64,000 bases of DNA from an uncultured Candidatus Saccharibacteria bacterium (GTDB lineage Bacteria; Patescibacteriota; Saccharimonadia; Saccharimonadales; UBA10212), in the NCBI GenBank assembly GCA_964448095.1, contig CAYUUT010000001.1:29067-93066 (forward strand), read 5' to 3'. Below the pieces are notes generated by a model. That model made no database searches and was not told the DNA's origin. It worked only from the letters and a program-made list of their open reading frames with translations. The first letter of the stretch is position 1; each line of letters begins with the position of its first letter. Below are positions 243 to 24,811 of this stretch, piece by piece. The position numbers and the translations under genes were made by a program.

Positions 243-271
243 ATGCATCAAAGTTAAAGCGTGGGCTTAGT

Positions 272-952: not shown

Positions 953-1040
953 TTAGTATATTATACAACCTAATGGAGTATTAAGCAATATAAGTATGTC
1001 TCCGAAGAGCACAGTCTCTGCAGCTTGAGCCCAAGCCCTA

Positions 1041-1367
1041 TTATGCCCCAGTCTTAAATGGGTCGATAGGGAGCTCGCAGGCGGAGGCTCCAAGGCGCTG
1101 TAGTTTATCTTTGGGTGGCAGCGCTACGGCCATTGGGTCATCTTGAAAAGTCGATTCTTCTGGTTCTGCTACAACACTGCCAGCATTTATACTATTCCTG
1201 ACCTGCCGCAATATCGTCGAAACCCTTTGCCTGCTGTCTAAGCCGTTCAAAGCAATTCTGGCTCCTCTGCGAAGTTTATTGTGGCTCCAGAAGGCCGGGC
1301 GGCCGCCCCTTCGTTTTAACTCTTGTGATTCGTCCAGCTCGTCCAAAGGATAGGCTAGCTCTGTCAT
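1041..1367 (-). CDS. hypothetical protein
   Basis: 108-aa ORF with no motif I recognise. Confidence 0.35.
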   Translation of the reverse strand: MTELAYPLDELDESQELKRRGGRPAFWSHNKLRRGARIALNGLDSRQRVSTILRQVRNSINAGSVVAEPEESTFQDDPMAVALPPKDKLQRLGASACELPIDPFKTGA

Positions 1368-1441
1368 AGAAACAGCCTATAACCGAACATTAAATTTTTC
1401 AAGCTCAGTAGCTAGTTCGTAAGTTAAAGCACCAAGCGGAT

Positions 1442-1783
1442 TTAGTCTGAGGGCTCCCACAGCTCTATGCGGTTGCCTTCCAGGTCTTCAATCGAAGCAA
1501 AGCGGCCCATGCCCTCGTATGTTTCAATATCTTTAACAACTTTTACCTTGCTAGCCCTAAGTTTTTTGAGCATTCCGTCTAGGTCATCTACCCTAAAGTT
1601 CAGCATAAATTGCTGTGATTTCCCAAAATAATCGCTATCTTGGGACATCGGCGCAAAGGCGGTTGGGCCGGCTTTCTGCTCCCATTTATAGCCGTTGATG
1701 CCTAGGTGCTTCTCGTACCATTTGCTCAGCGCCTCTGGGTCTTTCGCCCTAAACATAACGCCGCCTATGCCCGTAACTTTCAT
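1442..1783 (-). CDS. VOC-family (glyoxalase/bleomycin-resistance fold) protein
   Basis: GGVMFRAKDPEALSKWYEKHLG ... GRFASIEDLEGNRIELWEP is typical of small VOC/glyoxalase-fold proteins. Confidence 0.75.
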   Translation of the reverse strand: MKVTGIGGVMFRAKDPEALSKWYEKHLGINGYKWEQKAGPTAFAPMSQDSDYFGKSQQFMLNFRVDDLDGMLKKLRASKVKVVKDIETYEGMGRFASIEDLEGNRIELWEPSD

Positions 1784-1784
1784 T

Positions 1785-1994
1785 CTAAGACTTACCGTTT
1801 AGGTACTTACCGGCAACACTGAGAGCTAAAGAGGTAAGGATAACAAAAACGGTGGCCATCAGTAGTCTCATAATTACCCTGTTGAAACCAGACATGTCAT
1901 TGTCATTATCAGGCATTGTTAGTACTTGTATTACGCCTAAAACACCAAAGACTATTGAAGCACTCATAAAAACTCGTGTGGCTATTTTTTGCAT
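1785..1994 (-). CDS. small membrane protein (2 predicted TM helices)
   Basis: 69-aa ORF with two hydrophobic stretches. Its stop abuts the start of the VOC gene. Confidence 0.4.
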   Translation of the reverse strand: MQKIATRVFMSASIVFGVLGVIQVLTMPDNDNDMSGFNRVIMRLLMATVFVILTSLALSVAGKYLNGKS

Positions 1995-2084
1995 ACCTAT
2001 ATTGTATCAATGCCGATAGAAGGCAGGCATATATTTCTCCCTGACAAGAGTTATTTGACAGGGAGATTATGCTACTATTAGCTC

Positions 2085-2426
2085 ATGGCGATGCAGGTTT
2101 GGCCTGAGCGAGACGACATACACCCAGCCTCTTATTTACTCTATGCAGTCGGCTGGTGGTTAACTGGAACAATCGTAACCTTTGTCTTAGTAGGCTACAC
2201 TTTATACACTAACGTAACGGCTGATGGCAGCCACGTAAAAATCTATAATTGCACTCAGCAGGAAGCTGACGCAGGACAGGCGTGTACTTATCAAACTGCT
2301 GGTAAATATTTCCAGCAAACCGTACACGGTGATCTATGGATAGATGGATTTATCGTAGGAACGATTGCGGTCTTATCTTACGGATACCGCCTAGCGACAC
2401 ACCGCCGCTATAAAGACGAAGACTAG
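2085..2426 (+). CDS. hypothetical membrane protein
   Basis: 113-aa ORF with hydrophobic segments (YLLYAVGWWLTGTIVTFVLVGY and GFIVGTIAVLSYGY). Confidence 0.4.
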   Translation: MAMQVWPERDDIHPASYLLYAVGWWLTGTIVTFVLVGYTLYTNVTADGSHVKIYNCTQQEADAGQACTYQTAGKYFQQTVHGDLWIDGFIVGTIAVLSYGYRLATHRRYKDED

Positions 2427-2511
2427 TGTAGTACTACTAGACCTAGAAAAGTTAAAGCGGCTTACGAAAAATCCAAGTCAAAGCGTCAAGCGCTTACCCG
2501 TGTATAAAAAG

Positions 2512-2979
2512 CTAGTACGGCCGCTGCAATGCAATAATAAATATAAGTAGAGTCAGGACTAGAGAGGTCCAAGAATATGCCATTTTAGTAAGTTTCCGGT
2601 CTATAAATAACAGGAAGATATGGGCCATCATATAGACCAAGAATACAGAGTAGAGAACGTGGACATAATTCAGGTGATGAAATGCGAAGTTCGTTATAAA
2701 AACAAAAATTACTGCAGCAAAAGGCGACCCGAACTCTCCTGCATATGGCCTTAACTTATCTTCTGCATGAAATAATCTGAATATGTCTGTAAAGACAGCC
2801 CCAGCAAGACCGAACACAATAAGAAAAATTAGGTATGCGAAAAGGATAGAAATAATGTAAAACTCTACGCCTCTTAACAATCCTCTTTCGTGGATTCCAG
2901 CAAACAATAATACTAGTGTGGCTGATATTCCAAGGAGTTTCAGCCCGCTCATTCCAAGCATTAATTTTTTACTATGCAT
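2512..2979 (-). CDS. hypothetical polytopic membrane protein
   Basis: 155-aa ORF that is almost entirely hydrophobic helices, in an AT-rich region. Confidence 0.5.
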   Translation of the reverse strand: MHSKKLMLGMSGLKLLGISATLVLLFAGIHERGLLRGVEFYIISILFAYLIFLIVFGLAGAVFTDIFRLFHAEDKLRPYAGEFGSPFAAVIFVFITNFAFHHLNYVHVLYSVFLVYMMAHIFLLFIDRKLTKMAYSWTSLVLTLLIFIIALQRPY

Positions 2980-3160
2980 AACTAAACTATATTCCAGCTT
3001 TCAACTTTTTCACATAATTTCTTTTATGTGATTTTCTGACTTTGCATTGGGCAGTCCTTAGTGGACATACTTCGAACTCAATTTGACTTGCCGCTAGTAG
3101 TCCGCAGAGGTTATGCACTATAATAAAATTGTAAGTGGGCAGTAGGAAGGTTATCCGATT

Positions 3161-4333
3161 ATGTTCGACAAAATTTTACAATGGCCGAACCCTATAACGC
3201 CCGAGAACTGGAGAAAGACGGATGTTTCTGAGATATATGATGCTTCCGTCCACGGTGCCGTACCTCAGCTCCAAACGTTCATAAAACTACTGACATTCAT
3301 TCAGTCAGGCATTGGAGCTTGCTCTGATCCTAAGGCCTTTGAGAACTGGAGCTTCAATAACAGCTATGATAATTTGCTGGCAACCTGGATTGATCTCCTA
3401 AATAGGTTAAGAGACACCGCGCAAGGACAGCCCGAATGGCTTCACCAAGGGTACTGGAATTTTAACGGTAGCCAGGTTGGCCCATGGAATGTGAGTCTAG
3501 ATACCTCTACCGGAAATTTTACTGTCAATAATGACCCGAATCTCCTGCCCGACGTATCTAAGCAGCAGGATTTCGGCCTATTTTACGAAGTTGGGCGCGA
3601 GCTTCAAAAACTGAATAATCTTGTCCGCGGTGGCGTAAATTCCGCTCTAACTAAAGCATCTTTGAAAAGGATTGAAGATAGGACAGAAGAAACTATTGGC
3701 GATATCAATTCTAAGCTTGAGGCGGCAACGGCCGACAAAGTTGCTCAAATCAAAACTGTTCAAGCTTCTAAAGACTGGAGCGAACACTACGAAGATCGCT
3801 GCTCTGAACTTACCAAAATAATTGATGGTGACGATAAGAGCAAGAAAAAAGGATTAAAGCAAATTCGAGATTACTGGTATAGGTGGCTAGTTGCAACATT
3901 TGTTGTGTATGCAGTAGGAGCCTTGTTATTAATTCACGGTTGGTGGATTTTTAAGATAAATTCGTCTATTGACGCAACAGCTACGGGTTTCGGAAAATAT
4001 TTTATAGGACTAACCTTGTATGGTGTTATCACTGGCGTATACATTGGCTACGCTTACTCAGTAAGACAATTAAAAGTTAATCAGAACTTGCTCGAGCAGT
4101 ATAGGCATCGTTCAATTGTAGCTAAGACAATAGAGGGTGTAGTGCTTGCGGTTATTAAGACAAAAGAAGAAACAGCCGCTCCGGGAGAAGAAAGTGTTCT
4201 TAGAGATGAAGACCTCGAGCAATTAGTAAAGGTTGCCGCGACTTCTATGTTCGAGTATCGTCCTATCGGCCATCTTTCAACAAAAGAAGGAACGAGTGTA
4301 ATTAGCGATTTGTTAAGCGGTCGCAGTAGCTAG
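3161..4333 (+). CDS. hypothetical protein: large soluble/coiled-coil N-terminal region followed by 2 TM helices and a short C-terminal domain
   Basis: 390-aa ORF. TM candidates are WLVATFVVYAVGALLLIHGWWIF and YFIGLTLYGVITGVYIGYAYSV. There is a charged helical segment at about aa 160-240. A GGAAGG lies before the ATG. The gene is AT-rich. Confidence 0.6.
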   Translation: MFDKILQWPNPITPENWRKTDVSEIYDASVHGAVPQLQTFIKLLTFIQSGIGACSDPKAFENWSFNNSYDNLLATWIDLLNRLRDTAQGQPEWLHQGYWNFNGSQVGPWNVSLDTSTGNFTVNNDPNLLPDVSKQQDFGLFYEVGRELQKLNNLVRGGVNSALTKASLKRIEDRTEETIGDINSKLEAATADKVAQIKTVQASKDWSEHYEDRCSELTKIIDGDDKSKKKGLKQIRDYWYRWLVATFVVYAVGALLLIHGWWIFKINSSIDATATGFGKYFIGLTLYGVITGVYIGYAYSVRQLKVNQNLLEQYRHRSIVAKTIEGVVLAVIKTKEETAAPGEESVLRDEDLEQLVKVAATSMFEYRPIGHLSTKEGTSVISDLLSGRSS

Positions 4334-5454
4334 GTCGGCGTATATAAATTTTTGGATAATGAGTGTTTTGTCAGAATTTTCATTCTTGAAACTCTGAAAG
4401 TTCTATCGGCGTGGTCTAGTTCGCAGAATGCATTCACATAGACCTTCTTCTTATTAACAATCCTGCCCATGTAACGATAGCCCTTATAGATGTCTTTCGG
4501 GTGAATCACTCTATAAGAATGTAGGCCATCGCGGTCGGTATAGCTTATTTGAACTCCTGTTTTATTTTTCAAGGCCGTTGAAAGTGTCTTTATCTTTATT
4601 GTAGGTTCATAGTTTTCTCCATAATCGTCCATGGCATCAAACTTGCGATCTAGAAAATTACGATAGTGCTTGTCTTCATGGCAATCCTTACAAAGCGTTT
4701 GTAGGTTGCTCATGGCGTTTGTTCCGCCTAGTCTTAGAGCAAGTTTGTGGTCAACAGTCAGATTTGTATGCGACCCACAAACTGCGCACGTGTAGTTATC
4801 TCGCTGAAAAACTCTACTCCTTAACTCGCCCCATTTACTGTCTTGGCTAAGGCCTCTTCCACCAATCGGTGCGGTCCAGACATTTGCTTGTACTGGAACC
4901 CGTACCTCCGGCTCCTCTTTTTTGGTGATTTTATCGAAAGACTCACAACCCTCATCTAAATTACAAAATTTAGGATTTGAAATCTGAAACTGGCCTCTCT
5001 TAAGTTCATAATTTCCTCTGAGTTCATAAACAACACCTCTTTTAATTAACAGAGCAACATTAACCGCAAACCAAACTACTCTTACATTCCCAGTCTCATC
5101 TGAAAATACGCCATTAGTAACTCTTAGCCCATTCCGTACAAAGCGAGACGTTAGCTGTTGGAATGTGCCATGTAGATGCACATGCCCTGGCCTTAGTGCA
5201 TTTACATAGTCCAAGCCTGGGTATACTAGCTTGGATGAACGAAACATTTCTTCTATTTCCTCAGCCTCTGTATCCGAGTCATCTAGTGTTCTATAACTAA
5301 CCTTAACGCTGGAGTTATGGGGCAACTTTCTCTTGCTAGATGCAATATTTTTTGTGCCAAAAAGAAAGCTCAATAGTTTATATAAAAATGTTTCGTTATC
5401 TGCCATTTCCCTAGACTCATTAATCTGATTAAATTTTACTCGCAAGGGGCGCAT
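4330..5454 (-). CDS. HNH endonuclease with an N-terminal OB-fold-like domain and a C-terminal WYL-like domain
   Basis: The HNH core is CAVCGSHTNLTVDHKLALRLGGTNAMSNLQTLCKDCHEDKH. The segment VHLHGTF...FSDETGNVRVVWFA...GVVYELRGNYELKRGQFQISNP looks like a RecG-wedge/tRNA_anti type OB fold. The C-terminus ISYTDRDGLHSYRVIHP...VYVNAFCELDHADRTFRVSRMKIL follows the WYL-domain pattern. Confidence 0.7.
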   Translation of the reverse strand: MRPLRVKFNQINESREMADNETFLYKLLSFLFGTKNIASSKRKLPHNSSVKVSYRTLDDSDTEAEEIEEMFRSSKLVYPGLDYVNALRPGHVHLHGTFQQLTSRFVRNGLRVTNGVFSDETGNVRVVWFAVNVALLIKRGVVYELRGNYELKRGQFQISNPKFCNLDEGCESFDKITKKEEPEVRVPVQANVWTAPIGGRGLSQDSKWGELRSRVFQRDNYTCAVCGSHTNLTVDHKLALRLGGTNAMSNLQTLCKDCHEDKHYRNFLDRKFDAMDDYGENYEPTIKIKTLSTALKNKTGVQISYTDRDGLHSYRVIHPKDIYKGYRYMGRIVNKKKVYVNAFCELDHADRTFRVSRMKILTKHSLSKNLYTPT

Positions 5455-5533
5455 TTGATAAATTATTCCAGCAGCAACAGTAAACTGATGACTACGAGTC
5501 CTAGTGCGTAATAATAATTGAGCGACATACGAG

Positions 5534-5558
5534 AAAACCGCCCACTCCGGGCGGTTTT
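5534..5558 (-). terminator. rho-independent terminator downstream of the 234-aa cassette ORF
   Basis: Stem CCGCCC/GGGCGG with a 5-nt loop, flanked by AAAA and TTTT. On the minus strand the hairpin is followed by UUUUCUC. Confidence 0.6.
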
Positions 5559-5571
5559 CTTTAGAACTCTT

Positions 5572-5599
5572 GAACTAAAACTTAGGCTAGTTCGACTGT
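5572..5599. repeat. direct repeat copy A (28 bp, identical to the rplL 3' end copy at 6384-6411)
   Basis: GAACTAAAACTTAGGCTAGTTCGACTGT occurs exactly twice. Weaker similarity continues for about 15 nt (GCCGGCTT shared). Confidence 0.9.
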
Positions 5600-5612
5600 T
5601 AAGCCGGCTTTC

Positions 5613-6317
5613 TTAACCTGGCAGAGTATCTTCGGTGTCGTGTTCTGAGCGGGCATAGGCTATATCAACCCAGTCTTGGCCTTCTGGAGTGGCATCTAGT
5701 TTCCTTAGAACGTCCCAATCTTTGGAGAATGGGGTTACAAAAAATCTTTTGCCGTCGTGATAACCCCTAATAGGCACCCACTTTACAGTAGCCGCTACTG
5801 TCATAGCCTGAACAAGGTTTTTGGGGGTTACTCCCTCTATGTGTGAAGGAGCCTGCAGAACGGGAGATTTTACAAAAGCCGCGGCAATAGACTTGCCCTG
5901 CTCAGCGGACTGACGGTAATGTTGCTCTACGCCTTCAAAGCCAGGTATTAAGGCTGCCAATGTAACTGCGCTCATGGGCTCAACTTGGCTTACCGCAATA
6001 GCGTAAGTATCGGATAGCACCTCGCCGTGAGCCCGGTCTATGGCTGCAGCTACTTCGTCTTGGGCATCTTTATCTTCTAAAAATTCGCCCCAGCGTGATG
6101 CACGGGCTATGGCGTCGTATAGCATAGTTAGGTCATCCCTATTTCTTCGCGCCCAGGCTTCGGCGTCCTTTAACTCTTCCGTTTCAAGGTAAGTCTCAAA
6201 AGCCTGGTCCATCTGGGCCTGTGTAAAAACACGACCGTCGCTTAATCTATAGCGGCCATCTGGCAACTTAGCAAAACCACCTTCGTTTCCACTAGGAATT
6301 TCACTAGACATTGACAT
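5613..6317 (-). CDS. hypothetical acidic protein (cassette ORF downstream of rplL); probably leaderless from the ATG at 6311
   Basis: 234-aa ORF with no recognised motif. A TTGAAT-N16-TATAAT promoter ends 1 nt upstream of the first ATG, so the third codon (ATG at 6309-6311) is the likelier start. Confidence 0.55.
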   Translation of the reverse strand: MSMSSEIPSGNEGGFAKLPDGRYRLSDGRVFTQAQMDQAFETYLETEELKDAEAWARRNRDDLTMLYDAIARASRWGEFLEDKDAQDEVAAAIDRAHGEVLSDTYAIAVSQVEPMSAVTLAALIPGFEGVEQHYRQSAEQGKSIAAAFVKSPVLQAPSHIEGVTPKNLVQAMTVAATVKWVPIRGYHDGKRFFVTPFSKDWDVLRKLDATPEGQDWVDIAYARSEHDTEDTLPG

Positions 6318-6383: not shown

Positions 6384-6411
6384 GAACTAAAACTTAGGCT
6401 AGTTCGACTGT
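6384..6411. repeat. direct repeat copy B, overlapping the last 18 nt of rplL plus 10 nt downstream
   Basis: Exact 28-bp match to 5572-5599. Confidence 0.9.
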
Positions 6412-6918
6412 GGCGCCGGCTTCTTCCAAAGTCTTCTTGGCAGCTTCAGCGTCTTCTTTGCTGGCCTTTTCTAGTACAGGCTTAGGAACGGTGTCTGTGA
6501 TAGCTTTGGCTTCACCCAGGCCTAGACCGGTGATGTCTTTAACAGCTTTGATGACGGCTACTTTTTGGGCGCCGGTATCCTTAAGGATGACGTCAAATTC
6601 GCTCTTTTCGTCGGCGGCTGGAGCGGCATCGCCACCGGCCGGAGCGGCCACAGCGACGGCCAGAGCAGCAGCGCTAACGCCCCAGTGCTCTTCTAAAAGC
6701 TTAACGAACTTGCTGACTTCCAGAGCGCTCATCTTGTCGAGTTTCTCTACCAAGTCTTTGAACTCTTTAGGAACTGCAACATCAGCCTTTTTCTCTTCTT
6801 TGGCTTCTTTCTTGGGCTCTTCAGCCTTAGCTTCGGCCTTGGGGGCTTCTTTGGGCTCTTCGGCAACAGCGGCTGCAGCCTCGGTTACTTCGTCCTTCTT
6901 TACTTCTTCGTCTGCCAT
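6394..6918 (-). CDS. rplL: 50S ribosomal protein bL12 (L7/L12) with a roughly 50-aa Lys/Glu/Ala-rich N-terminal extension
   Basis: [26 protein letters not shown] ... [21 protein letters not shown] ... [10 protein letters not shown]. The gene lies downstream of rplJ. Confidence 0.95.
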
Positions 6919-6935
6919 AATATCTCCTTTACTTA

Positions 6936-7466
6936 TTAACTTATTGATTCGCTGCGGGCTTCCAGAACGTTCAGGACACTCCGCAAATTGGCATTCATGG
7001 TTCCAACCAGGCCGGATAACGGCGAGGCGATAATACCTACCAGCTGACCACGCAATTGATCCTTGGTGGGCAAGTTAGCGAGCATTTGTACGTCAGCGGC
7101 GCTCAAAACACTGCCATCGGCGCTTAGACCAGCTACAAATTGGATTTGCGGCTGCTCTTTAGCGAAAGTGGCCAAACTTTGGGCGGGAGCGACGTCGTCT
7201 TCGGCGTTGAAGGCATAAAGCAGCTGGCCCTTGAGCAAGCCCGGGTCGACGTCTTTAAAATGTTCGCTGGCGGCCAAAGCTTGTTTGAACAGGCGGTTTT
7301 TGATGACCCGTACGCGCGTGCCGTTTTCGCGGGCGTCACGGCGCAGCTTTTGCATAGCCTGAACTGAAGTACCGGGGTAGATTGCTACCACAGTTAGCTT
7401 AGCCGAATCCAGTAACTCGGTTACTTCGGCGACGACTTCCTTTTTCTTGTCTCTGCTTAGAGCCAT
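6936..7466 (-). CDS. rplJ: 50S ribosomal protein uL10
   Basis: 176-aa ORF directly upstream of rpl[43 protein letters not shown] is typical of L10. Confidence 0.9.
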
Positions 7467-7480
7467 TTTGTGCCTTTCAA

Positions 7481-7513
7481 AATAAAAAATCTTTGGCTTA
7501 CTTGCACCAAAGA
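7481..7513 (-). promoter_or_regulatory. terminator-like hairpin plus U-run inside the rplJ 5' leader (possible L10-leader attenuator)
   Basis: On the minus strand UCUUUGG-10 nt loop-CCAAAGA is followed by UUUUUUAUUUU, about 15 nt before the rplJ ATG. Confidence 0.35.
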
Positions 7514-7520
7514 CTCGACG

Positions 7521-7548
7521 AATATTGCTAAAAATTGATTTTTGGCAA
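7521..7548 (-). promoter_or_regulatory. candidate promoter for rplJ-rplL
   Basis: On the minus strand TTGCCA-N16-AATATT, upstream of the leader hairpin. Confidence 0.3.
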
Positions 7549-7634
7549 CCTCGGTAGCGGATTAAGGCTTTTGGCCGGCTACTGTCTCTGGTATCTAGCT
7601 AAGATTCTAGCAGATAAGGGGTTAGCTGACAAGT

Positions 7635-9488
7635 TTATTTTGCGCTGCGGCGTCTATTTGAACGGCGGCGGGCACTTTTGGACTGTTTTGGCTTGTCTTC
7701 TAGCTGCCGGCGCAAAGAATCGGCGATTATGGGGTGGTGTTGGCTAATATTCTGCCAAAGCTGCTCCAGCAGGCTGTCAAACAGTTTAGAGCGGACTTTA
7801 GGTATCTTCTGCAGCGCGCCCAAGTTGCAGCTGAACTGAAAGCGCACGCGGTGGCCGGTAAGTGTGGCATAGGCGGCTAGTTCCGGCTCCTTGCCGGCTT
7901 GGAGCTTGCTGAACATTTCCAGACTCAGGTCAAAGCATTCTATAAATTCATTCTCCAGGCCAGCGGCTTCTATACCAGCTGGTACGTCATAACCGTAGCG
8001 CGGGGTTGGGGCTTGCAGTTGCAAACCGCTGACCAAGCCGCTGAGCAGTAGTTCTAATATCAACCCCTGTTCGGCTATAACATCCCAGCGGTAGCGCACC
8101 TGCCCCGCCAGCGCCGGGTCAATATCGGCCAAAATTGCGCTGAGCGCCTGGAACTTTTGCTCGTAATTCCAGTTTTCTATGCCGGCCTGGACTTGCTGGC
8201 GCGGTAAATCGCTGATGTCGTACAAGCTGTCGCTAAGCAGGCTGAATTCGTTATGTGGCCAAGCTTCTAGCAGCGTTACGACCTCCGTTTCGGTTGAAAT
8301 TTTAGGCGATGTTTGGCCGTGGGCCAGTTTTTCCAGCTGTTTCTTGGCTTGGTTGTGCTTGATGTCTAGTTTAGGCTCGCGCAGTTTGGAACCGTCCTTG
8401 CTGGTGTGCAAGTAGCAATAAGTCGCCATCGGCATTAGCAAGCCCAGAATTTCTTCGCTGTCGGCGGACTTCCTTTTGGCCAGCTCCTTTTCTACCTTTT
8501 GGCGATAGGCGGCGATTTGCTTCATAAACGCCTGGTATTGCTTGAGCAGACTTGGCTCCAGGCTGGGAGTGTAGTATTCCGGCTGCTTGGCGCCCATTTC
8601 TAGCCCTTCTAAATCCAGATTGCCAGACTTGGACTCTTCAATCAGCGCTAAAAGGCTTAATTTGGCTGGGCTAGCCTGTGCGGGTTGGCTAGTTGGCGTA
8701 TTTTGAGCCTTGGGCTTAGGCTCAGACCGCTCGGCTGGCTCATCAAATCTAACTACCGCGCCGCGGGCGGGCCGGTGTGGCTTTTCCGGCAGCATAGGCT
8801 TAACTATTTCCCAAATACGGTTATTAATAGCCGGGACGCTGAGTAGCCGGTCTTCATCAGTGCATTCTATAGCCTTAAAATCCCGTGGAAATAGCTGGCA
8901 GAGGGTGTCATAAGTGGCGACTGATTTACGCAGGTGCTCGATATCGGCCTCGTGCTCATCGCGCTTTTTATCGGTGTAGCTGCGTTGATTTTTATTGGCG
9001 ATTAACTGATAAGAAACTTCGGCCGGTACCCTTAGGAATAAATTGATATTCGGCCGCGGGATGCCGAGTAGTTCGAACTCCAGGCTCTCAGACCAGATGA
9101 AAAATCCGCGCTGTTCGGCCGGGTTAGTGAATTTAGAGCCCTGATGCGCCATATTTGAGCCGACGTAGCGGTTAGATAGCACTACCTTGCCGCTATCCAG
9201 AGCTTTCCTGATATCTATGGCCGCCTCGTAACGGTCGAGGGCATAGAACAGCGAGGCGCTATAGGGACTGATTTCTGAAGCCGGGCCGTAATCGCCGTTT
9301 AGGTAGCGCTGCACAAAGTGGCTGGAAGGTTGGTCATAGCGCGGAAAATCAAAGGTTTCAACATCATAGCCCACGGCTTTTAGCCGCTCGGTGAGCAGCT
9401 TGAACTGGGTTCCTTTGCCGGAGCCGTCCGAACCTTCTAAGACTATAAAAATTCCGTTATTCATATGTGGGTAGATATGCTCCGCCAA
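7635..9488 (-). CDS. tmk: dTMP kinase fused to a long C-terminal region resembling degenerate ThyX (Thy1) repeats
   Basis: The N-terminus FIVLEGSDGSGKGTQFKLLTERL ... ALDRY ... SNRYVGSNMAHQG indicates thymidylate kinase. After a Pro/Gln/Ala linker, the segments YYTPSLEP...LGLLMPMATYCYL and TPRYGYDVP...AAYATLTGHRVRFQFSCNLGAL...HHP resemble ThyX but lack the RHR motif. An ATG at 9464 is an alternative start. Confidence 0.7.
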   Translation of the reverse strand: MAEHIYPHMNNGIFIVLEGSDGSGKGTQFKLLTERLKAVGYDVETFDFPRYDQPSSHFVQRYLNGDYGPASEISPYSASLFYALDRYEAAIDIRKALDSGKVVLSNRYVGSNMAHQGSKFTNPAEQRGFFIWSESLEFELLGIPRPNINLFLRVPAEVSYQLIANKNQRSYTDKKRDEHEADIEHLRKSVATYDTLCQLFPRDFKAIECTDEDRLLSVPAINNRIWEIVKPMLPEKPHRPARGAVVRFDEPAERSEPKPKAQNTPTSQPAQASPAKLSLLALIEESKSGNLDLEGLEMGAKQPEYYTPSLEPSLLKQYQAFMKQIAAYRQKVEKELAKRKSADSEEILGLLMPMATYCYLHTSKDGSKLREPKLDIKHNQAKKQLEKLAHGQTSPKISTETEVVTLLEAWPHNEFSLLSDSLYDISDLPRQQVQAGIENWNYEQKFQALSAILADIDPALAGQVRYRWDVIAEQGLILELLLSGLVSGLQLQAPTPRYGYDVPAGIEAAGLENEFIECFDLSLEMFSKLQAGKEPELAAYATLTGHRVRFQFSCNLGALQKIPKVRSKLFDSLLEQLWQNISQHHPIIADSLRRQLEDKPKQSKSARRRSNRRRSAK

Positions 9489-9528
9489 CTGCCCACCAGC
9501 TGACTATAATTTAACCATAAACAACCGT

Positions 9529-10041
9529 TTAAGCAAATTGCTTGCCAACAATATTCCTGTCGGACTCCTTATTAAAGAGGTTTTCGCTGTCTTCCAGCAG
9601 ATAAACTCGCGTGATGCCGTTTTTGATAAGCGTGTCCCAGCAGGCCTCGCAGCACCACCAGTGCCCCCATAGATAGGCATCGGCACCCGCGGGGTCGTGG
9701 CCCGAGCGTTTGGCGTCTTCGATAGCCCGCGGTTCGCTATGGTTCTTAGGGTGGCAGCCTTCGCACAGTTCGTAGCCCTGCCCGGTTGGAATATTCAACC
9801 TTACGCGCTCGCAAACGTGCGTTTTGTGGTAATCGCTGCCGTTGGCTCCGCGGCCGATGATTTTGCCGTCTTTGACCAGCACCGTTCCAGTTGGCATAAC
9901 GTCGTCTAAGGACGAAGTCCGGGCTTTTTCCTTAGCGACTTGCATGAACTCGTTATTAGCCGGGACATAAGCAAACCGCCCCTTGGGATGCATGTAAGGG
10001 TATTTGATTTTTGTCGCGGTTTTTGCGGCTTTTGTCGTCAT
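9529..10041 (-). CDS. dCMP/cytidylate deaminase-fold protein
   Basis: VLVKDGKIIGRGANG, HSEPRAIEDA (H-x-E) and WWCCEACWDTLIKNGI (C-x-x-C), as in ComEB/dCMP deaminases. Confidence 0.7.
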   Translation of the reverse strand: MTTKAAKTATKIKYPYMHPKGRFAYVPANNEFMQVAKEKARTSSLDDVMPTGTVLVKDGKIIGRGANGSDYHKTHVCERVRLNIPTGQGYELCEGCHPKNHSEPRAIEDAKRSGHDPAGADAYLWGHWWCCEACWDTLIKNGITRVYLLEDSENLFNKESDRNIVGKQFA

Positions 10042-10098
10042 ATCTCTCTTATAAAGTATAGCAATCTTTGGCTAACATCTCTATAATTAGCCCACACG

Positions 10099-10935
10099 AT
10101 GGCGGTATTTGACGGTATATATCAGTCCCTTCTGAAGGACATTATGACTAAGGGCTCAAAGGAGCTTAACGAACGTACTGGGCACGAAACTGCTGCCCTG
10201 CCGGGCGTTAGTTTTTCGCTTGATTTAAAAAAGAACGGCTTCCCGCTGCTAAGTTTGCGCAAAATCCCCACCAAAATCCTGATTGCCGAACAGATATGGT
10301 TTATATCCGGAGCGCGCAAGCCGGCAGTCTTCCTGCGCGACTACACCCGTATTTGGGACGATTTTACCAACCCCGGCGACGTGGTTACCGTGGCCTATGG
10401 CTACCGCTGGCGGCGGCATTTTGGCCGCGACCAGCTGGGCTTGCTTATAAAACTTCTGCAGAAAGACCCTTCATCGCGCCACGGCGTGGTTGTCACCTGG
10501 GATCCGTCCAGCGACGGTCTGGGAGGTGTCAGCAAGAGCAATATTCCCTGCCCCTACACCTTTACGGTCAATATCATCGGCGGCCGGCTTAATCTGATGA
10601 ATGTCGTCCGTTCCAATGACATGATTCTTGGTTTTCCGCACGACGTCGGCGGCTTTGCCCTGTTGCAAACCATGCTGGCCCAAAAACTGGGCGTAGAAGT
10701 CGGCGTTTACACTCACACCATAGCTAACGCCCACGTCTACGACATCCACTACAATGCCGCTAAAGAGATGATTAGGCGCCCAACTAGCTCCAAAAAGATC
10801 AGCTTCGTACTCCCAGACAACAGCTTTGGCCGGGCTGAAGCTAAAGACCCATCGCTGGTTGATGAAATTAACGCCCGCTTGACGGCCCACTACAAGCCGG
10901 GCGAGCCAATCAAAGATCTGAAAATAGTTCTATAA
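10099..10935 (+). CDS. ThyA-family pyrimidine-C5 methyl/hydroxymethyl transferase with Asp at the base-specificity position
   Basis: ERTG, GFPLLSLRK, AEQIWF, AYGYRWRR, DPSSRHGVVVTWDP, catalytic IPCPYTF and VRSNDMILGFPHDVGGFALL all align with thymidylate synthase and dCMP hydroxymethylase motifs. A TATAAT lies 11 nt before the ATG. Confidence 0.8.
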   Translation: MAVFDGIYQSLLKDIMTKGSKELNERTGHETAALPGVSFSLDLKKNGFPLLSLRKIPTKILIAEQIWFISGARKPAVFLRDYTRIWDDFTNPGDVVTVAYGYRWRRHFGRDQLGLLIKLLQKDPSSRHGVVVTWDPSSDGLGGVSKSNIPCPYTFTVNIIGGRLNLMNVVRSNDMILGFPHDVGGFALLQTMLAQKLGVEVGVYTHTIANAHVYDIHYNAAKEMIRRPTSSKKISFVLPDNSFGRAEAKDPSLVDEINARLTAHYKPGEPIKDLKIVL

Positions 10936-10944
10936 TGAAAGCCT

Positions 10945-11616
10945 ATGCCAGTATTAAATAACGACGACATCCTGGACTACGTCCGCAAGGGCAAGCTTGG
11001 TTTTGATCCCCAGCTCGACCAGTTCCAGCTACAAGCCCATTCGGTAGATTTAAGGCTGGGCTTTACCTTTTTGGTGCCAAAATCCTGGCAAGTGACCGGC
11101 GAAGGCCGCGAGCAGCTACACATGGACTACTACGCCGCCGAGCGGCCGGAGCACTTTGACGTTGTTGAGCTAGAAAAGGGCCAATTCTTTGATTTGCTGC
11201 CTGGTGAGCACATCCTGGTCTCGTCCTTGGAGTCAGTCAAGGTTCCCGATGATTTGATGGCCACGATGTACCCACGCTCATCTATCAACCGCAAGGGAAT
11301 TTCCGTAGACCAAACCGGCATTGTAGACAGCGGCTATGAGGGTCAGTTGGTCATACCTATCCGCAACAATACCCGTTCGCAAACCGTGCGGCTGTATCCC
11401 GGTGAACGTTTTTGCCAATTAGTTTTCCAGAAACTCAGCGCGCCGGTGCAAGCCCGTAAAAGCCGCTATCATCAGAAAGACATAATTGAAGGCGTCGACG
11501 TCGACAGTTTAGAGGATGAACGCCAGATAGAGATAGAAAGCATCACTGCGGGCGACATAAGAAAGCTAAAGACAGACTATCCAGCAGACAAGAAAGCCGG
11601 ACGGCCTAAAAAGTAG
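10945..11616 (+). CDS. dcd: dCTP deaminase (dUTPase-fold) with a charged C-terminal extension
   Basis: HSVDLRLG, MYPRSSINRKGI, DSGYEGQLVIPIRNN, GERFCQLVF. Confidence 0.85.
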   Translation: MPVLNNDDILDYVRKGKLGFDPQLDQFQLQAHSVDLRLGFTFLVPKSWQVTGEGREQLHMDYYAAERPEHFDVVELEKGQFFDLLPGEHILVSSLESVKVPDDLMATMYPRSSINRKGISVDQTGIVDSGYEGQLVIPIRNNTRSQTVRLYPGERFCQLVFQKLSAPVQARKSRYHQKDIIEGVDVDSLEDERQIEIESITAGDIRKLKTDYPADKKAGRPKK

Positions 11617-12025
11617 CTAGCCAATCCAGAATCAACTGAGGCGCGTCGTCGCCCAGGCTCTTATATCGGATAAAACTAAACTTCTCCTCGGCCTCCGCCG
11701 CGCCCATTATTAGACGGCTAATTTTTGCATCTTTTTGGGCCAGCGCCAGGACCGGCTTATCCAGTTCGGTGGCTACACCCAATTCAAAGCCTAAACCCAG
11801 CCCAGGGTGGTCACAGATGGCGATAAAAGCGTCGCAGTGCTTGATGCAGTGGTCAATATCCCACTCATAAACGCCCTTAGGAGTACCAGCCACAAGCCCC
11901 AAAAAGTCGAAGACTTCGTAGTCTTTACCCTTAAGAACCGATTTTAGCTCCTCGACGTCTTTCTTAAAATCTTCCGGCGCGTCTGTTAGCGCGCAGCCGA
12001 TGTACAGTTTAGTCTTAGACGCCAT
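11606..12025 (-). CDS. nucleoside 2-deoxyribosyltransferase-like (Rcl/NDT family) protein
   Basis: KLYIGCAL ... DIDHCIKHCDAFIAICDHPGLGLGFELGVATELDKPVLAL matches the NDT-family pattern, including the Glu. The gene follows rplA by 13 nt. Confidence 0.55.
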   Translation of the reverse strand: MASKTKLYIGCALTDAPEDFKKDVEELKSVLKGKDYEVFDFLGLVAGTPKGVYEWDIDHCIKHCDAFIAICDHPGLGLGFELGVATELDKPVLALAQKDAKISRLIMGAAEAEEKFSFIRYKSLGDDAPQLILDWLATF

Positions 12026-12038
12026 TGTCCGTGTCTCC

Positions 12039-12950
12039 TTACGTTTGGACTTTGATGCTCGGGCCCATGGTGGTGGTCACATGGATGGATTCGACGTAAA
12101 CACCTTTTAAGCTGGCCGGTTTGGCGGCTCGAACGGCGCCTAGAACAGCTTCGCCGTTTTGGTTGAGTTTATCGGCCGTAAAACTGGCTTTGCCGATACC
12201 CACGTGGATGATTCCGGCTTGGTCAACGCGGTATTCTACACGACCGGCTTTGGCTTCGGCTACAGCTTTAGCGGTATCCTTGGCAACAGTGCCGCTTTTG
12301 GGGTTGGGCATCAGACCGCGCGGACCCAGTAATTTGGCATACTTGCCCAGCTTCGCCATGAATTCGGGGGTGGACACCAAGACGTCAAAGTCGATAGTGC
12401 CTTTATCCAGCTTGGTGAGCAAAGCTTCGTCGGCTATGGCTACTTTGACATCCTTGCCGGTGCCGGCCGGCAGCACAACGGTGCCGCGGATGTTGTGGTC
12501 GGCCTGTTTAGGGTCAACACCCAGGTTGATGTGCAGTTCTACCGTGGCATCGAATTTAGTAGGGCTAGTCTTGGTGGCCAAATCTAAAGCCTCAGCCAAG
12601 CTGTAGGTTTTGCTCTTGTCGATTTTTTTGACTAGTTCGCGATACTTCTTGCCGGCGCGCTCAGTCCGAGTGCGGGGCGGTTTTTTGGTGGCCTTAACGG
12701 CTTCGGCAGCCTTTTCGGGAGTTTTGCTGGCCTTGCGTTCTTCTTTAGCCTCTTTTTCCTCGGCTTCTTTAATAGCTTTGGGGCTGTGCTTACCAGCCTT
12801 GGTCGTAACTTTCTCGACTTCGATTTTAGCTTCCGGCGGCGCCTCAACTGGTACGGCTTCGGCTACCAATTCGGCTTCTTTGACTTGTTTTTTCTTGGTT
12901 GCTACTTTCTTTGGCGCCTTGGCGCTGGTTGATTTCTTGGCTTCTGCCAT
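12039..12950 (-). CDS. rplA: 50S ribosomal protein uL1 with a roughly 95-aa Lys/Ala/Glu-rich N-terminal extension
   Basis: GKKYRELVKKIDKSKTYSLAEALDL ... RGLMPNPKSGTV ... is typical of L1. The start is moved from the tracked 12992 to the ATG at 12950, which is preceded by AAAGGAG. Confidence 0.9.
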   Translation of the reverse strand: MAEAKKSTSAKAPKKVATKKKQVKEAELVAEAVPVEAPPEAKIEVEKVTTKAGKHSPKAIKEAEEKEAKEERKASKTPEKAAEAVKATKKPPRTRTERAGKKYRELVKKIDKSKTYSLAEALDLATKTSPTKFDATVELHINLGVDPKQADHNIRGTVVLPAGTGKDVKVAIADEALLTKLDKGTIDFDVLVSTPEFMAKLGKYAKLLGPRGLMPNPKSGTVAKDTAKAVAEAKAGRVEYRVDQAGIIHVGIGKASFTADKLNQNGEAVLGAVRAAKPASLKGVYVESIHVTTTMGPSIKVQT

Positions 12951-13032
12951 GATTGACTCCTTTGTGGTGCTAGCGCCCCTTTGGGCTCCCACTTGCTTAA
13001 CGTTTAACTATAAATTCTCTCTTGAGTATCCT

Positions 13033-13254
13033 CTACGGTTCTTGGCGGCTATTTCTTAACTCTAGAGCCCGGTATAAAACTCCTATTTTCTCGTCTTTAG
13101 CAATCTGGTCTAAATGGGGGTCGCCTTCCATAAGAACAATCTGATCAGCTATCCTGGCTGGGTCCAGGGTTGAGAAAAGCCCGATACTTAGGTGTTGACC
13201 CTCTTCATAGCTAACTGATTCGTCGTGAATAAGTTTTATCCGCTCGCCCATCAC
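13033..13254 (-). CDS. small acidic hypothetical protein between rplK and rplA
   Basis: 73-aa ORF. Its GTG-ATG start directly abuts the rplK TAA. No recognisable motif. Confidence 0.4.
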   Translation of the reverse strand: MMGERIKLIHDESVSYEEGQHLSIGLFSTLDPARIADQIVLMEGDPHLDQIAKDEKIGVLYRALELRNSRQEP

Positions 13255-13680
13255 TTACTCTATCTCAATGCCCATACTGCGGGCGGTACCGGCGACTGTT
13301 TTTTTAATCGCTTCGATGTCATCGGTGTTCATATCTTCGGCTTTGGCCTGGGCGATTTCCGTTAGTTGGGATTGGCTGAGCTTTTTATCCAGCTTGGTCT
13401 TATTGGGCTCGCCGGAGCCTTTATCTACCTTCAGGGCGGCCAAAATTAGCTCATCCGTAGGTGTGCCTACCACTCGCCAGCTCATGCTGCGGTCGTCGTA
13501 GATAGTGATGTGCACGGTTACGCTCTGGCCCATCTTGTCTTTGGTCTGTTCGTTAAACGGCGTCACAAAGTCCATCATGTTTACGCCGTACTGACCGAGG
13601 GTTGAACCGACCGGCGGCCCGGCGCTGGCCTGCCCGCCCCTAATCTTTAGTTTCAAATTCGCTTTTACTTCTTTAGCCAT
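13255..13680 (-). CDS. rplK: 50S ribosomal protein uL11
   Basis: KLKIRGGQASAGPPVGSTLGQYGVNMMDF... Confidence 0.95.
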   Translation of the reverse strand: MAKEVKANLKLKIRGGQASAGPPVGSTLGQYGVNMMDFVTPFNEQTKDKMGQSVTVHITIYDDRSMSWRVVGTPTDELILAALKVDKGSGEPNKTKLDKKLSQSQLTEIAQAKAEDMNTDDIEAIKKTVAGTARSMGIEIE

Positions 13681-13682
13681 AA

Positions 13683-14225
13683 TTAAACTCGCTTCACCTG
13701 TAAGCCGTCCAGCTCCACCGGAGTTTCGCGGCCGAACATATTAACCAATACTTTGAGCTTGCCCTTTTGGCTGTCAATTTCGTTGATCGCGCCGTCAAAG
13801 CCCTTGAACGGTCCATCGGTGATATTAACAACTTCGCCAACGCGGTAATCAAACTTGTGTTTGGGCTCTTCGCGGCCCATGCGCTTGAGGATTTTGGCGA
13901 TTTCTTCGGGCTCAACCGGTGTGGGGTCGGTGCCGGTGCCCACAAAACCGGTAACGTTCGGTGTGTTACGCACGATGTACCAGGCGTCTTCGGATAATTT
14001 CATCTCTACCAGTACGTAGCCCTGGAAAATGCGCTTTTCGACAACCTTGCGCTTGCCATTCTTGATTTCAATCATTTTTTCCTTGGGGACCAAGACCTGG
14101 AAGATTTTGTCGCCCATATCCAAACTTTCCGCGCGCTGGCGGATGCTCTCGGCGACTTTTTCTTCGTAGCCGCTGTAGGTGTGGATTGCGTACCACTGCT
14201 TGGTTGAATCGTAACGTTTAGCCAT
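13683..14225 (-). CDS. nusG: transcription termination/antitermination factor NusG
   Basis: WYAIHTYSGYEEKV (NGN domain) and the KOW segment GEVVNITDGPFKGFDGAINEID. secE-nusG-rplK synteny. Confidence 0.95.
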   Translation of the reverse strand: MAKRYDSTKQWYAIHTYSGYEEKVAESIRQRAESLDMGDKIFQVLVPKEKMIEIKNGKRKVVEKRIFQGYVLVEMKLSEDAWYIVRNTPNVTGFVGTGTDPTPVEPEEIAKILKRMGREEPKHKFDYRVGEVVNITDGPFKGFDGAINEIDSQKGKLKVLVNMFGRETPVELDGLQVKRV

Positions 14226-14232
14226 ATACTTC

Positions 14233-14643
14233 CTACCTTAAAATAAACTTCTTAAATACTTCGTCCAGAACCCGGTCAACACCGTAGACCGCGGCGCCAA
14301 AGATAAGAGCGAAAATGAATACGGCGCCGGTAAGCCGCCAGGTTTCCTTGCGGCCCGGCCAAGTCACTTGACGGACTTCGCGCCAGGAGTTGATGAAATA
14401 ACGCGGTACCAGCCATCCCAGCACTCGCTTTACTATCCGGAAAAAGCGATTGTCCGGCAAATGCACGCGGCCTCTGGGATTGAGCTTCTTAAGCGGTCTG
14501 AGCGCTTTTGACGCTGCCAGGCGGACACGCTTAGGTTTAACTGGTTTCTCGGCCTCGGCTTGAGCCTTAGCCGCTCGCTCGCGCACTGTAGGCGCGGACC
14601 TACGGATGCGCGGTCGCCTTTTAGCTGTATCTGGTTCTGCCAC
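14233..14643 (-). CDS. secE: preprotein translocase subunit SecE with a basic N-terminal extension (GTG start)
   Basis: The C-terminus FINSWREVRQVTWPGRKETWRLTGAVFIFALIFGAAVYGVD is typical of SecE. The gene lies upstream of nusG. Confidence 0.85.
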   Translation of the reverse strand: MAEPDTAKRRPRIRRSAPTVRERAAKAQAEAEKPVKPKRVRLAASKALRPLKKLNPRGRVHLPDNRFFRIVKRVLGWLVPRYFINSWREVRQVTWPGRKETWRLTGAVFIFALIFGAAVYGVDRVLDEVFKKFILR

Positions 14644-24793: not shown

Positions 24794-24811
24794 CAATAGA
24801 GTAGAGATTTT

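Follow-up and report, generated by a model that had tools for sequence, protein, structure and literature searches.

Positions 7635-12025 of a 64-kb stretch of DNA (hereafter the window) from a Saccharimonadales bacterium (Saccharibacteria; Candidate Phyla Radiation, CPR) contain a cluster of genes that raises a question about thymidylate (dTMP). To our knowledge, cellular thymidylate synthesis is regarded as having two solutions, ThyA and ThyX, both of which start from deoxyuridylate (dUMP). The initial annotation of the window described a tmk/ThyX-like gene, a gene with the fold of deoxycytidylate (dCMP) deaminase, an Asp-type ThyA homolog, dcd, and a gene like nucleoside 2-deoxyribosyltransferase (NDT). 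It left two readings for them. One was a pathway through 5-methyl- or 5-hydroxymethyl-dCMP, and the other was ordinary salvage clustering. From which nucleotide, then, does this cluster make dTMP? We propose, with a probability of roughly 0.6, that it makes dTMP without dUMP, along the route from deoxycytidine triphosphate (dCTP) to dCMP, 5-methyl-dCMP, dTMP, and thymidine diphosphate (dTDP).

The central gene of the cluster encodes the ThyA homolog. In an alignment with E. coli ThyA and solved thymidylate synthases (TS), its Asp182 falls at the Asn177 position of the E. coli enzyme, and Cys151 and Pro152 stand at the positions of Cys146 and His147. The equivalents of the catalytic Cys, Arg21, Glu58, Arg166, Asp169, His207, and Tyr209 are all retained. 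Among 81 aligned sequences, Asp182, Cys151, and Asn148 (at the Leu143 position) are invariant, and Pro152 replaces His147 in 78. Phe89 in place of Trp83 and a hydrophobic C-terminal tail (...I-V-L) are conserved in the same alignment. The Asp co-varies with N-x-x-C-P and Phe89, whereas canonical ThyA has L-x-x-C-H and Trp. The label "Asp-type" given in the initial annotation was correct for the window protein and for all 81 sequences. The protein scored 119.5 against TIGR03284 (thymidylate synthase; cutoff, 108.35), and all PRK01827 equivalogs were under their cutoffs (e.g., 138 versus 327).

By general agreement, the choice between dUMP and dCMP is set by Asn177, and a TS in which this residue is replaced by Asp becomes a dCMP methylase (Liu & Santi, Hardy & Nalivaika, Graves et al. 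1992, as relayed in PMC8670742). The nearest relatives of the window protein share the Asp. The best matches in a set of 50,697 phage genomes were the ThyA homologs of Xp12, PaMx74, AXL1, and RcSimone-Hastad (38-41% identity; E≈1e-45 to 1e-57), and phage Td enzymes were further off (about 28-31% identity; E≈1e-23). The closest characterized relative is the dCMP methylase of phage Xp12 (39.6% identity, 168 bits). Pairwise scores were 168-201 bits for Xp12, PaMx74, and RcSimone, 109 bits for E. coli ThyA, and 43 bits for T4 dCMP hydroxymethylase. The window protein and the Xp12 group have the motifs AYGYRWR.HFGRDQL, N-[IV]-P-C-P, and P-[YH]-D-V in common, and Xp12, PaMx74, and RcSimone have the same NCP, YD, AY, and F states. 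Formation of 5-methyldeoxycytidine (5-methyl-dC) nucleotides in vivo has been demonstrated for the Xp12 enzyme and for five metagenomic relatives (bioRxiv 10.1101/2024.12.05.627091).

An exhaustive HMMER search covered 1.84 billion representatives, and 150 representatives were examined. The best 90 that cover the position all contain Asp, N-x-x-C-P, and Phe, bar one fragment. Rank 91 is the first canonical sequence, with L-x-x-C-H, Asn, and Trp. Four active-site positions thus change state together, and the window protein is placed deep within the Asp-type block of sequences.

T4 hydroxymethylase is marked by three features: Asp or Glu at Cys-3, Ser or Thr next to the catalytic Tyr, and a missing C-terminal tail (PMC6400193). 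This signature is absent from the CPR enzyme, which has Asn148 at Cys-3, Val98 and Ala99 before Tyr100, and the tail. The Xp12 enzyme likewise does not have it. We strongly infer that the ThyA homolog is a dCMP C5-methyltransferase, which would convert dCMP and methylene-tetrahydrofolate (methylene-THF) to 5-methyl-dCMP and dihydrofolate (DHF).

The company that this gene keeps points the same way. One genome per GTDB species was scanned, and counts out of 80 given here and below refer to the 80 best loci. Relatives of the ThyA-like gene were found in at least 307 GTDB species, all of them Patescibacteria. The 80 best loci bear labels from at least 10 CPR lineages, including Saccharibacteria, Paceibacteria/Parcubacteria, Kaiser-, Taylor-, Doudna-, Colwell-, Adler-, and Vogelbacteria. 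The deaminase gene is divergently adjacent to the ThyA-like gene in 78/80 loci, and a Dcd-like gene lies directly downstream of the ThyA-like gene in 76/80. Loci without one or the other are mostly contig ends. Clustering of this core trio is far beyond chance (76-78 of 80), which is not the case for the NDT-like gene (8/80) or for a cytidine deaminase (CDA)-fold gene at 272-952 (0/80). The initial annotation had named synteny across CPR genomes as a check, and the core genes passed it.

Other partners were counted by unbiased clustering of all neighboring open reading frames (ORFs) within 5 kb. A gene of the dihydrofolate reductase (DHFR) family was found in 69-72 of the 80 loci, on the plus strand between or right after the ThyA-like and Dcd-like genes. 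Serine hydroxymethyltransferase (SHMT) was encoded on the deaminase side in 53/80. A small MazG-like pyrophosphohydrolase (18/80), a HAD hydrolase (13/80), and FolD (12/80) were encoded nearby. A tmk gene was present within 8 kb in about 48-52 of the 80. The typical order is tmk, glyA, and the deaminase gene leftward, followed by thyA(Asp), folA, and the dcd-like gene rightward. The cluster of a typical relative is a complete thymidylate cycle. One relative (L004) is without DHFR, like the window. Ordinary salvage clustering is unlikely, since the cluster is a de novo thymidylate cycle and not a salvage set.

DHFR is required only where DHF is a product. The DHFR-family gene in the operon of most relatives thus suggests that DHF is formed there, and so argues for reductive methylation and not hydroxymethylation. 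Of the two branches in the initial annotation, the one through 5-methyl-dCMP gains strong comparative support from the Xp12 clade, the invariant Asp, and the pairing with the deaminase. The clustering with DHFR and SHMT and a natural fusion of deaminase and ThyA(Asp), described below, support it further. DHFR linkage, the TS-type tail, and the absent T4 signature argue against the hydroxymethyl, modified-base branch.

In loci from outside the Saccharimonadales, the ThyA-like protein is better conserved than any other protein encoded there, with a median identity to the window copy of 67%. The medians are 57% for the Dcd-like protein, 55% for NusG, 51% for the deaminase, and 43% for L11. Such conservation fits an essential housekeeping role. 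Genes rplK and nusG lie within 8 kb in about 45-49 of the 80 CPR loci, and this suggests that the position of the module near ribosomal genes is old and vertically kept. A family-alignment scan of IMG/VR viral contigs found no CPR-type copy of ThyA.

The Zn ligands of the deaminase (H101, E103, C131, and C134) are invariant in its family, as is a further Cys/His cluster. The middle residue of its H-x-E motif varies among 78 family members (S in 42, A in 26, G in 9, and C in 1), so the HSE of the window copy, first read as a departure from HAE, is ordinary family variation. It scored 28.6 bits against TIGR02571 (ComEB; cutoff, 219) and does not reach the level of the dCMP deaminase equivalog. 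A phmmer search of the PDB returned weak TadA matches and nothing else. The best PDB folds for its AlphaFold (AF2) model (pLDDT, 87) were the dCMP deaminases of S-TIM5, T4 (Cd), PBCV-1, and human (DCTD), with 4p9e, 1vq2, 7fh4, and 2w4l as top Foldseek matches; the TM-scores were just 0.44-0.48, and TadA and RibD were close behind. The family appears to be confined to CPR. DCTD-type deaminases accept 5-methyl-dCMP (PMC12088426). From its pairing with the ThyA homolog, the natural fusion, and the phage precedent, the predicted reaction of this deaminase is 5-methyl-dCMP to dTMP.

The Dcd-like protein passes its family hidden Markov models (HMMs), with 118 bits against TIGR02274 (cutoff, 92.8) and 2.3e-33 against PF22769. 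Its best solved match is the bifunctional Dcd:dut of M. tuberculosis (6e-15). All CPR sequences (74/74) have Pro at the position of the catalytic Glu (E. coli Glu138, M. tuberculosis Glu129, M. jannaschii Glu145), and no gap disturbs the register there (Asp+10). With Pro in place of this Glu, the protein cannot deaminate by the known mechanism. Its initial assignment as dcd in the sense of a dCTP deaminase does not stand, even though the family HMM is passed, and a nucleotide pyrophosphatase is predicted instead. Motif III is dUTPase-like ("IVDSGY" versus "IDSDY" in dUTPase); its Asp is present in 73/74 sequences and its Tyr in 74/74. Motif II retains its Ser and Arg. The score against TIGR00576 (dUTPase) is 48 bits versus a cutoff of 102.6, below the level of the Dut family HMM. 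On visual inspection, no motif V was apparent in the alignment. The Dcd-like "dUTPases" of the archaeal viruses SRV, HGTV-1, and PhiF1 all retain Glu and are uninformative on Glu-less forms. The protein is probably a (d)NTP pyrophosphatase that acts on dCTP, deoxyuridine triphosphate (dUTP), or both to give the dNMP and pyrophosphate. It contains a C-terminal extension (aa ~180-223) that is absent from E. coli Dcd, with a conserved ITxGDIxKLKxxYP as in locus L013 and in part in locus L091.

Phage cassettes of the Xp12, PaMx74, and RcSimone type encode an NTP pyrophosphohydrolase (MazG/HAD), ThyA(Asp), a deaminase, and DHFR, in this order. Protein P0281 (424 aa) is a fusion of PRA-PH/MazG to Asp-type ThyA. 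Because a pyrophosphohydrolase stands before Asp-type ThyA in these cassettes and in this fusion, we favor dCTP as a substrate of the Dcd-like protein; a role as dUTPase only is also possible. Protein P0258 (L091:8001-9302; 433 aa) joins a dCMP-deaminase domain, at its N terminus, to an Asp-type ThyA, at its C terminus, in one polypeptide. Beside it is a Dcd-family gene (L091:9335-9973) that encodes Pro at the Glu position and is 39% identical to that of the window. The triad of ThyA(Asp), deaminase, and Glu-less Dcd thus recurs in a distant lineage. A ribonucleotide reductase gene lies 6 kb off. The contig, of 58-210 kb, is rich in unannotated ORFs, contains a VanY-like gene, and is possibly a large phage. 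A "new thymidylate biosynthesis" by way of 5-methyl-dC was described in Xp12-infected Xanthomonas in 1982 (Kuo 1982; Wang & Ehrlich 1982, as relayed in PMC12088426). The model from 5-methyl-dC to dT in phages is also found in bioRxiv 10.1101/2024.12.05.627091.

The N-terminal domain of the Tmk fusion spans about aa 1-210. Pfam Thymidylate_kin (PF02223) matches residues 17-206 at 1e-19, and a P-loop (GSDGSGKGT) and LDRY are visible in the translation. The equivalog cutoffs are not reached (127 versus 193). A ThyX-like domain follows at about aa 380-600. The full-length window protein gives a weak Thy1/ThyX match there (residues 500-567; E=0.008). The C-terminal part was compared with profiles from syntenic loci, since a word-index search gave just two homologs. 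The fusion was found in Saccharimonadales only, at 9 of the 80 loci. Ten relatives were compared, namely these nine and a copy from locus L086. Their C-terminal domain matches Pfam Thy1 (best, 2.8e-20), and most retain RHR, (S/T)PRY, and NAR. In the window copy, RHR is replaced by SGL and NAR by NLG, 5 aa are deleted, and the isolated C terminus has no Pfam match. The L086 copy (6623-8629) is altered too (RRH, NAE) and adjoins an extra stand-alone Tmk. The window ThyX domain has decayed, and the flavin-dependent dUMP route seems to be lost in the window genome. The gene is tmk/ThyX-like, as first described, with the ThyX-like C terminus present in decayed form. A ThyX gene was not found in the 64-kb window by tblastn or by HMMs or phmmer on six-frame ORFs.

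Taken as a pathway, the cluster would work as follows. The Dcd-derived protein, having lost the deaminase Glu, would act as a pyrophosphatase and convert dCTP to dCMP. This is the least certain step, and the enzyme may also, or instead, clear dUTP. The Asp-type ThyA homolog would methylate C5 of dCMP with methylene-THF and give 5-methyl-dCMP and DHF. The divergently transcribed CDA-fold deaminase would take off the 4-amino group of 5-methyl-dCMP and yield dTMP, which Tmk would convert to dTDP. In most relatives, the DHFR and SHMT of the same cluster would regenerate methylene-THF. The window genome would encode a trimmed version, with DHFR and SHMT absent from the 64 kb and the ThyX domain on Tmk decayed.

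It is a more tentative suggestion, which we regard as somewhat doubtful, that this dCMP route is the sole de novo thymidylate source in module-bearing CPR and a third, dUMP-independent cellular solution. Exclusive use of the route is most plausible for the window genome, whose ThyX domain has decayed and whose "Dcd" appears unable to deaminate to dUTP/dUMP. If the route were the sole one, most deoxynucleotide metabolism would bypass uracil intermediates, and some 5-methyl-dCTP might leak into DNA.

Several points weigh against the pathway from dCMP to dTMP proposed here. The analysis observed which genes are present, their residue states, their synteny and fusions, and how they relate to the validated Xp12 enzyme; the functions of all CPR module proteins are predicted from sequence and context. 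The ThyX domain looks intact in nine Saccharimonadales relatives, which may have a dUMP route in addition. Tblastn and HMMs or phmmer on six-frame ORFs found no homolog of DHFR, SHMT, or the MazG-like protein in the 64-kb window. Glu-less variants of the bifunctional M. jannaschii DCD-DUT (E145 mutants) reportedly retain dUTPase and not dCTPase activity. The deaminase sequence offers no sign that 5-methyl substrates are preferred. In BLAST comparisons, the CPR deaminase had no significant match among the deaminases of Xp12, PaMx74, and RcSimone. A common origin of the CPR and phage deaminase partners was rejected on this result. If their function is the same, the CPR deaminase was recruited independently. 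Lastly, the phage deaminase mSCD-B5 acts on 5-methyl-dCTP and not on 5-methyl-dCMP (bioRxiv 10.1101/2024.12.05.627091), so the order of steps could differ from the one proposed. The phosphorylation level of deamination is, like every catalytic activity here, a prediction.

The alternative that survives best is built on this last point. In it, in line with a proposal made for phage Xp12, 5-methyl-dCMP would be raised to 5-methyl-dCTP, perhaps by a Tmk-family kinase, and the deaminase would yield dTTP. The Dcd-like protein would sanitize dUTP or excess 5-methyl-dCTP and would not be the supplier of dCMP. mSCD-B5 is the only characterized deaminase that is partnered with an Asp-type ThyA, and its need for triphosphates fits this order (bioRxiv 10.1101/2024.12.05.627091). 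So does a 5-methyl-dCTP deaminase in Xp12 infection (Wang & Ehrlich 1982, as relayed in PMC12088426). Locus L086 has two side-by-side Tmk-family genes that could serve dTMP and 5-methyl-dCMP separately, and the small MazG-like NTP pyrophosphohydrolase of 18/80 loci also speaks for it. However, the CPR and phage deaminases have no more than the superfamily in common, and the best fold matches of the CPR one are deaminases of dCMP, a monophosphate. Linkage to Tmk is simplest with dTMP as the product. A standing pool of 5-methyl-dCTP would risk random 5-methylcytosine (5mC) in DNA. We consider deamination at the triphosphate level unlikely.

Could the cluster be a canonical operon after all? The ThyA homolog would then use dUMP despite its Asp, and the deaminase (as dCMP deaminase) and the Dcd-like protein (as dUTPase) would both supply dUMP. 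All of the genes come from families that textbooks assign to the dUMP route, and TIGR03284 and TIGR02274 are above their cutoffs. Linkage to DHFR, SHMT, and Tmk is typical of a normal thyA operon, motif III of the Dcd-like protein is dUTPase-like, and CPR papers take the gene for an ordinary thyA. Against this, it is established from mutants, and from every natural enzyme tested, that Asp at position 177 specifies dCMP (PMC8670742; bioRxiv 10.1101/2024.12.05.627091). The CPR enzyme falls within the Asp-type clade of the validated Xp12 methylase, in which four active-site positions switch together. A deaminase neighbor in 78/80 loci and fusions of deaminase and ThyA(Asp) are foreign to canonical thyA. 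In viromes, co-localization of deaminase and TS marks cytosine-modifying systems (70% versus 6%; bioRxiv 10.1101/2024.12.05.627091). A canonical operon is improbable on this evidence.

A third alternative is DNA modification. Here, 5-methyl-dCMP would be made for incorporation, 5mC would enter CPR DNA at the nucleotide level, in full or in part, and serve for anti-restriction or self-marking as in Xp12, and the deaminase would divert a part to thymidylate. The homologous phage cassettes do belong to phages that replace all C with 5mC (bioRxiv 10.1101/2024.12.05.627091). Short-read assemblies cannot tell 5mC from C, and the duplication of the Tmk family in L086 would also suit such a role. However, a module with DHFR, SHMT, FolD, and Tmk that stands beside ribosomal genes and is the most conserved unit of the locus fits a housekeeping supply of dTMP. 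Neither a dedicated 5-methyl-dCMP kinase nor dCTP-exclusion machinery was seen, the CPR-type enzyme was absent from the viral contigs of the IMG/VR scan, and the literature searched held no report of globally methylated CPR DNA. We regard this alternative as very unlikely.

The least credible alternative, to which we give almost no weight, is a modified-base or catabolic pathway in which the ThyA homolog is a dCMP hydroxymethylase, the deaminase yields 5-hydroxymethyl-dUMP, and a DNPH1-like protein hydrolyzes it: Asp-type specificity is common to T4 dCMP hydroxymethylase, and the NDT-like protein of the window is nearest to DNPH1, the 5-hydroxymethyl-dUMP N-hydrolase, but the T4 signature residues are absent, the TS-type tail is conserved, the T4 enzyme scores 43 bits versus 168-201 for the methylase clade, the operon DHFR points to DHF, which hydroxymethylases do not form (PMC6400193), and the DNPH1-like gene is present in just 8/80 loci.

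The proposed dCMP route has counterparts among known systems. It has the following in common with the Xp12/PaMx74/RcSimone cassette: the ThyA subfamily (38-40% identity, with N-x-x-C-P, P-[YH]-D-V, and AYGYRWR.HFGRDQL), CDA-fold deaminase, nucleotide pyrophosphatase, and DHFR partners, and a proposal that thymidylate is made by deaminating a 5-methyl-dC nucleotide. The CPR version differs in being chromosomal and cellular, beside ribosomal protein genes, and with SHMT and Tmk. Its deaminase is nonhomologous beyond the superfamily, its predicted pyrophosphatase is a Glu-less Dcd derivative and not MazG/HAD, and its purpose is presumed to be dTMP supply and not replacement of C by 5mC in DNA. 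With the canonical ThyA-DHFR-SHMT cycle it shares the TS fold, the catalytic residues, the C-terminal tail, and the linkage to DHFR, SHMT, and Tmk. It differs in four residues (Asn177 to Asp, His147 to Pro, Leu143 to Asn, and Trp83 to Phe), in an obligatory deaminase partner, and in the predicted substrate, dCMP, with 5-methyl-dCMP rather than dTMP as the immediate product.

The logic of T4 gp56 and gp42 is the same, in that a pyrophosphatase gives dCMP and a TS homolog with Asp at the specificity position then modifies C5. T4 gp56 is an all-alpha MazG-type protein and not of the Dcd type. gp42 is 21% identical to the CPR enzyme (43 bits), and its signature (Asp145, Ser94, tail absent; PMC6400193) is not found there. 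The Dcd and bifunctional Dcd-dUTPase enzymes of M. tuberculosis and M. jannaschii have the same fold and family, motif II Ser/Arg, and motif III Asp. The CPR and L091 proteins differ from them in Pro for Glu, and the CPR proteins also in a dUTPase-like motif III and in their specific C-terminal extension. The C-terminal domain of the Tmk fusion in the relatives resembles ThyX in its Thy1 match (2.8e-20) and in RHR, S/T-x-RY, and NAR. Unlike ThyX, it is fused to Tmk and found in Saccharimonadales only, and in the window copy the motifs and the Thy1 match are lost.

The chemistry and the ThyA subfamily are already known from phages. The chromosomal, phylum-wide context of a thymidylate cycle, the nonhomologous deaminase, and the predicted Dcd-derived pyrophosphatase are new. 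In the literature searched, no description of such a pathway in a cellular organism was found. In CPR genomics papers, the gene is taken to be a regular thyA, and folA, glyA, and folD are named among typical CPR genes. In databases, too, the ThyA-like and Dcd-like genes go under the plain names thyA and dcd. If the proposal is true, a large part of CPR makes dTMP from dCMP via 5-methyl-dCMP, a chemistry so far on record just for Xp12-like phages. Corrections would be needed to hundreds of "thyA" and "dcd" annotations and to the CPR metabolic reconstructions derived from them. There would be a Dcd-derived enzyme class with a new activity, and the CPR deaminases would join the candidate 5-methylcytosine-nucleotide deaminases as a new family; such enzymes are of current interest for methylation sequencing. 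The question would also arise how CPR episymbionts handle uracil and 5mC in DNA.

Table 1. Features of the thymidylate module and related genes in the 64-kb window
Feature	Position	Strand	Length	Basis
Tmk fusion, dTMP kinase with decayed ThyX-like domain	7635-9488	-	617 aa	Pfam Thymidylate_kin, Thy1
CDA-fold mononucleotide deaminase, predicted 5-methyl-dCMP to dTMP	9529-10041	-	170 aa	PF00383, 3.5e-12
Divergent intergenic region between deaminase and ThyA-like genes	10042-10098	.	57 bp	ORF coordinates
Asp-type ThyA homolog, predicted dCMP C5-methyltransferase	10099-10935	+	278 aa	PF00303, 1.3e-49
Dcd-family protein without deaminase Glu, predicted (d)NTP pyrophosphatase	10945-11616	+		TIGR02274, 118 bits
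NDT-like gene, DNPH1/Rcl-like, probably dNMP N-glycosidase	11606-12025	-		PF05014, 28.2 bits
CDA-fold gene outside the module	272-952	-	226 aa	PF00383, 25.4 bits

All six ORFs of interest in the initial annotation were found at their coordinates in the ORF list, each in the family given for it by Pfam/TIGRFAM matches (Table 1). The five adjacent genes, the divergent gap, and the convergent end are as first described. At the convergent end, dcd and the NDT-like gene overlap by 11 bp. The initial annotation also placed a divergent promoter region in the gap. The divergent geometry was confirmed and is kept in 78/80 loci. The sole sigma-70-like match in the gap is a weak -35/-10 pair at 10083-10055 on the minus strand, and promoter- and terminator-like matches across 7400-13100 are not above shuffle expectation. 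The "divergent promoter" itself is putative. No gene for ribonucleotide reductase or dut was found among the window ORFs scanned, including a Pfam scan of ten unassigned mid-size ORFs.

The NDT-like gene begins 13 bp downstream of rplA. Its protein is just under the gathering score of PF05014 (28.8). Among solved structures in the PDB it is nearest to Rcl/DNPH1 (E=2e-6 to 7e-5), the family of 5-hydroxymethyl-dUMP N-hydrolase; the similarity is weak. The catalytic Glu is retained (GFELG). Homologs were found in 8/80 loci, seven of them inside or immediately beside the module and a weak eighth about 2.8 kb upstream. It shares the catalytic Glu motif with DNPH1/Rcl (E=2e-6) and differs in its weak similarity, its Pfam score under threshold, and its presence in few module loci. 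The gene was placed in the cluster in the initial annotation. It does adjoin dcd, but it was rejected as a core member on its 8/80 count and is probably an occasional accessory that encodes a dNMP N-glycosidase.

The CDA-fold protein encoded at 272-952 contains CAE and PCxxC motifs and scored 24.9 against the cytidine deaminase equivalog (cutoff, 74). The ORF and its fold were correctly described. A link to the module was not upheld, and the gene was rejected as a core member, with a counterpart near the module in 0/80 loci. Unrelated genes intervene, and it lies in a stretch of lower GC content.

The thymidylate module interrupts the usually contiguous secE-nusG-rplK-rplA-rplJ-rplL cluster (6394-14643), between rplJ (6936-7466) and rplA (12039-12992). 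Ribosomal proteins L1 (12039-12992, minus strand) and L7/L12 (6394-6918, minus strand) contain long Lys/Ala/Glu-rich N-terminal extensions. L1 has 303-317 aa and L12 has 174 aa, both well over the usual bacterial sizes. Window positions 1-6000 have a GC content of 0.42-0.48, versus about 0.51-0.55 elsewhere. An ORF in this part (4330-5454, minus strand, 374 aa) encodes an HNH-type motif (CAVCGS...DHKLALRLGG...CKDCHEDKH), and several neighboring ORFs seem unannotated. Positions 1-6000 could be a variable or mobile region. Further along, at 23900-25531 on the plus strand, a protein with an ice-binding-like domain (PF11999, 2.7e-34) is followed directly by a sortase (PF04203). The two probably form a sortase-anchored surface protein pair.

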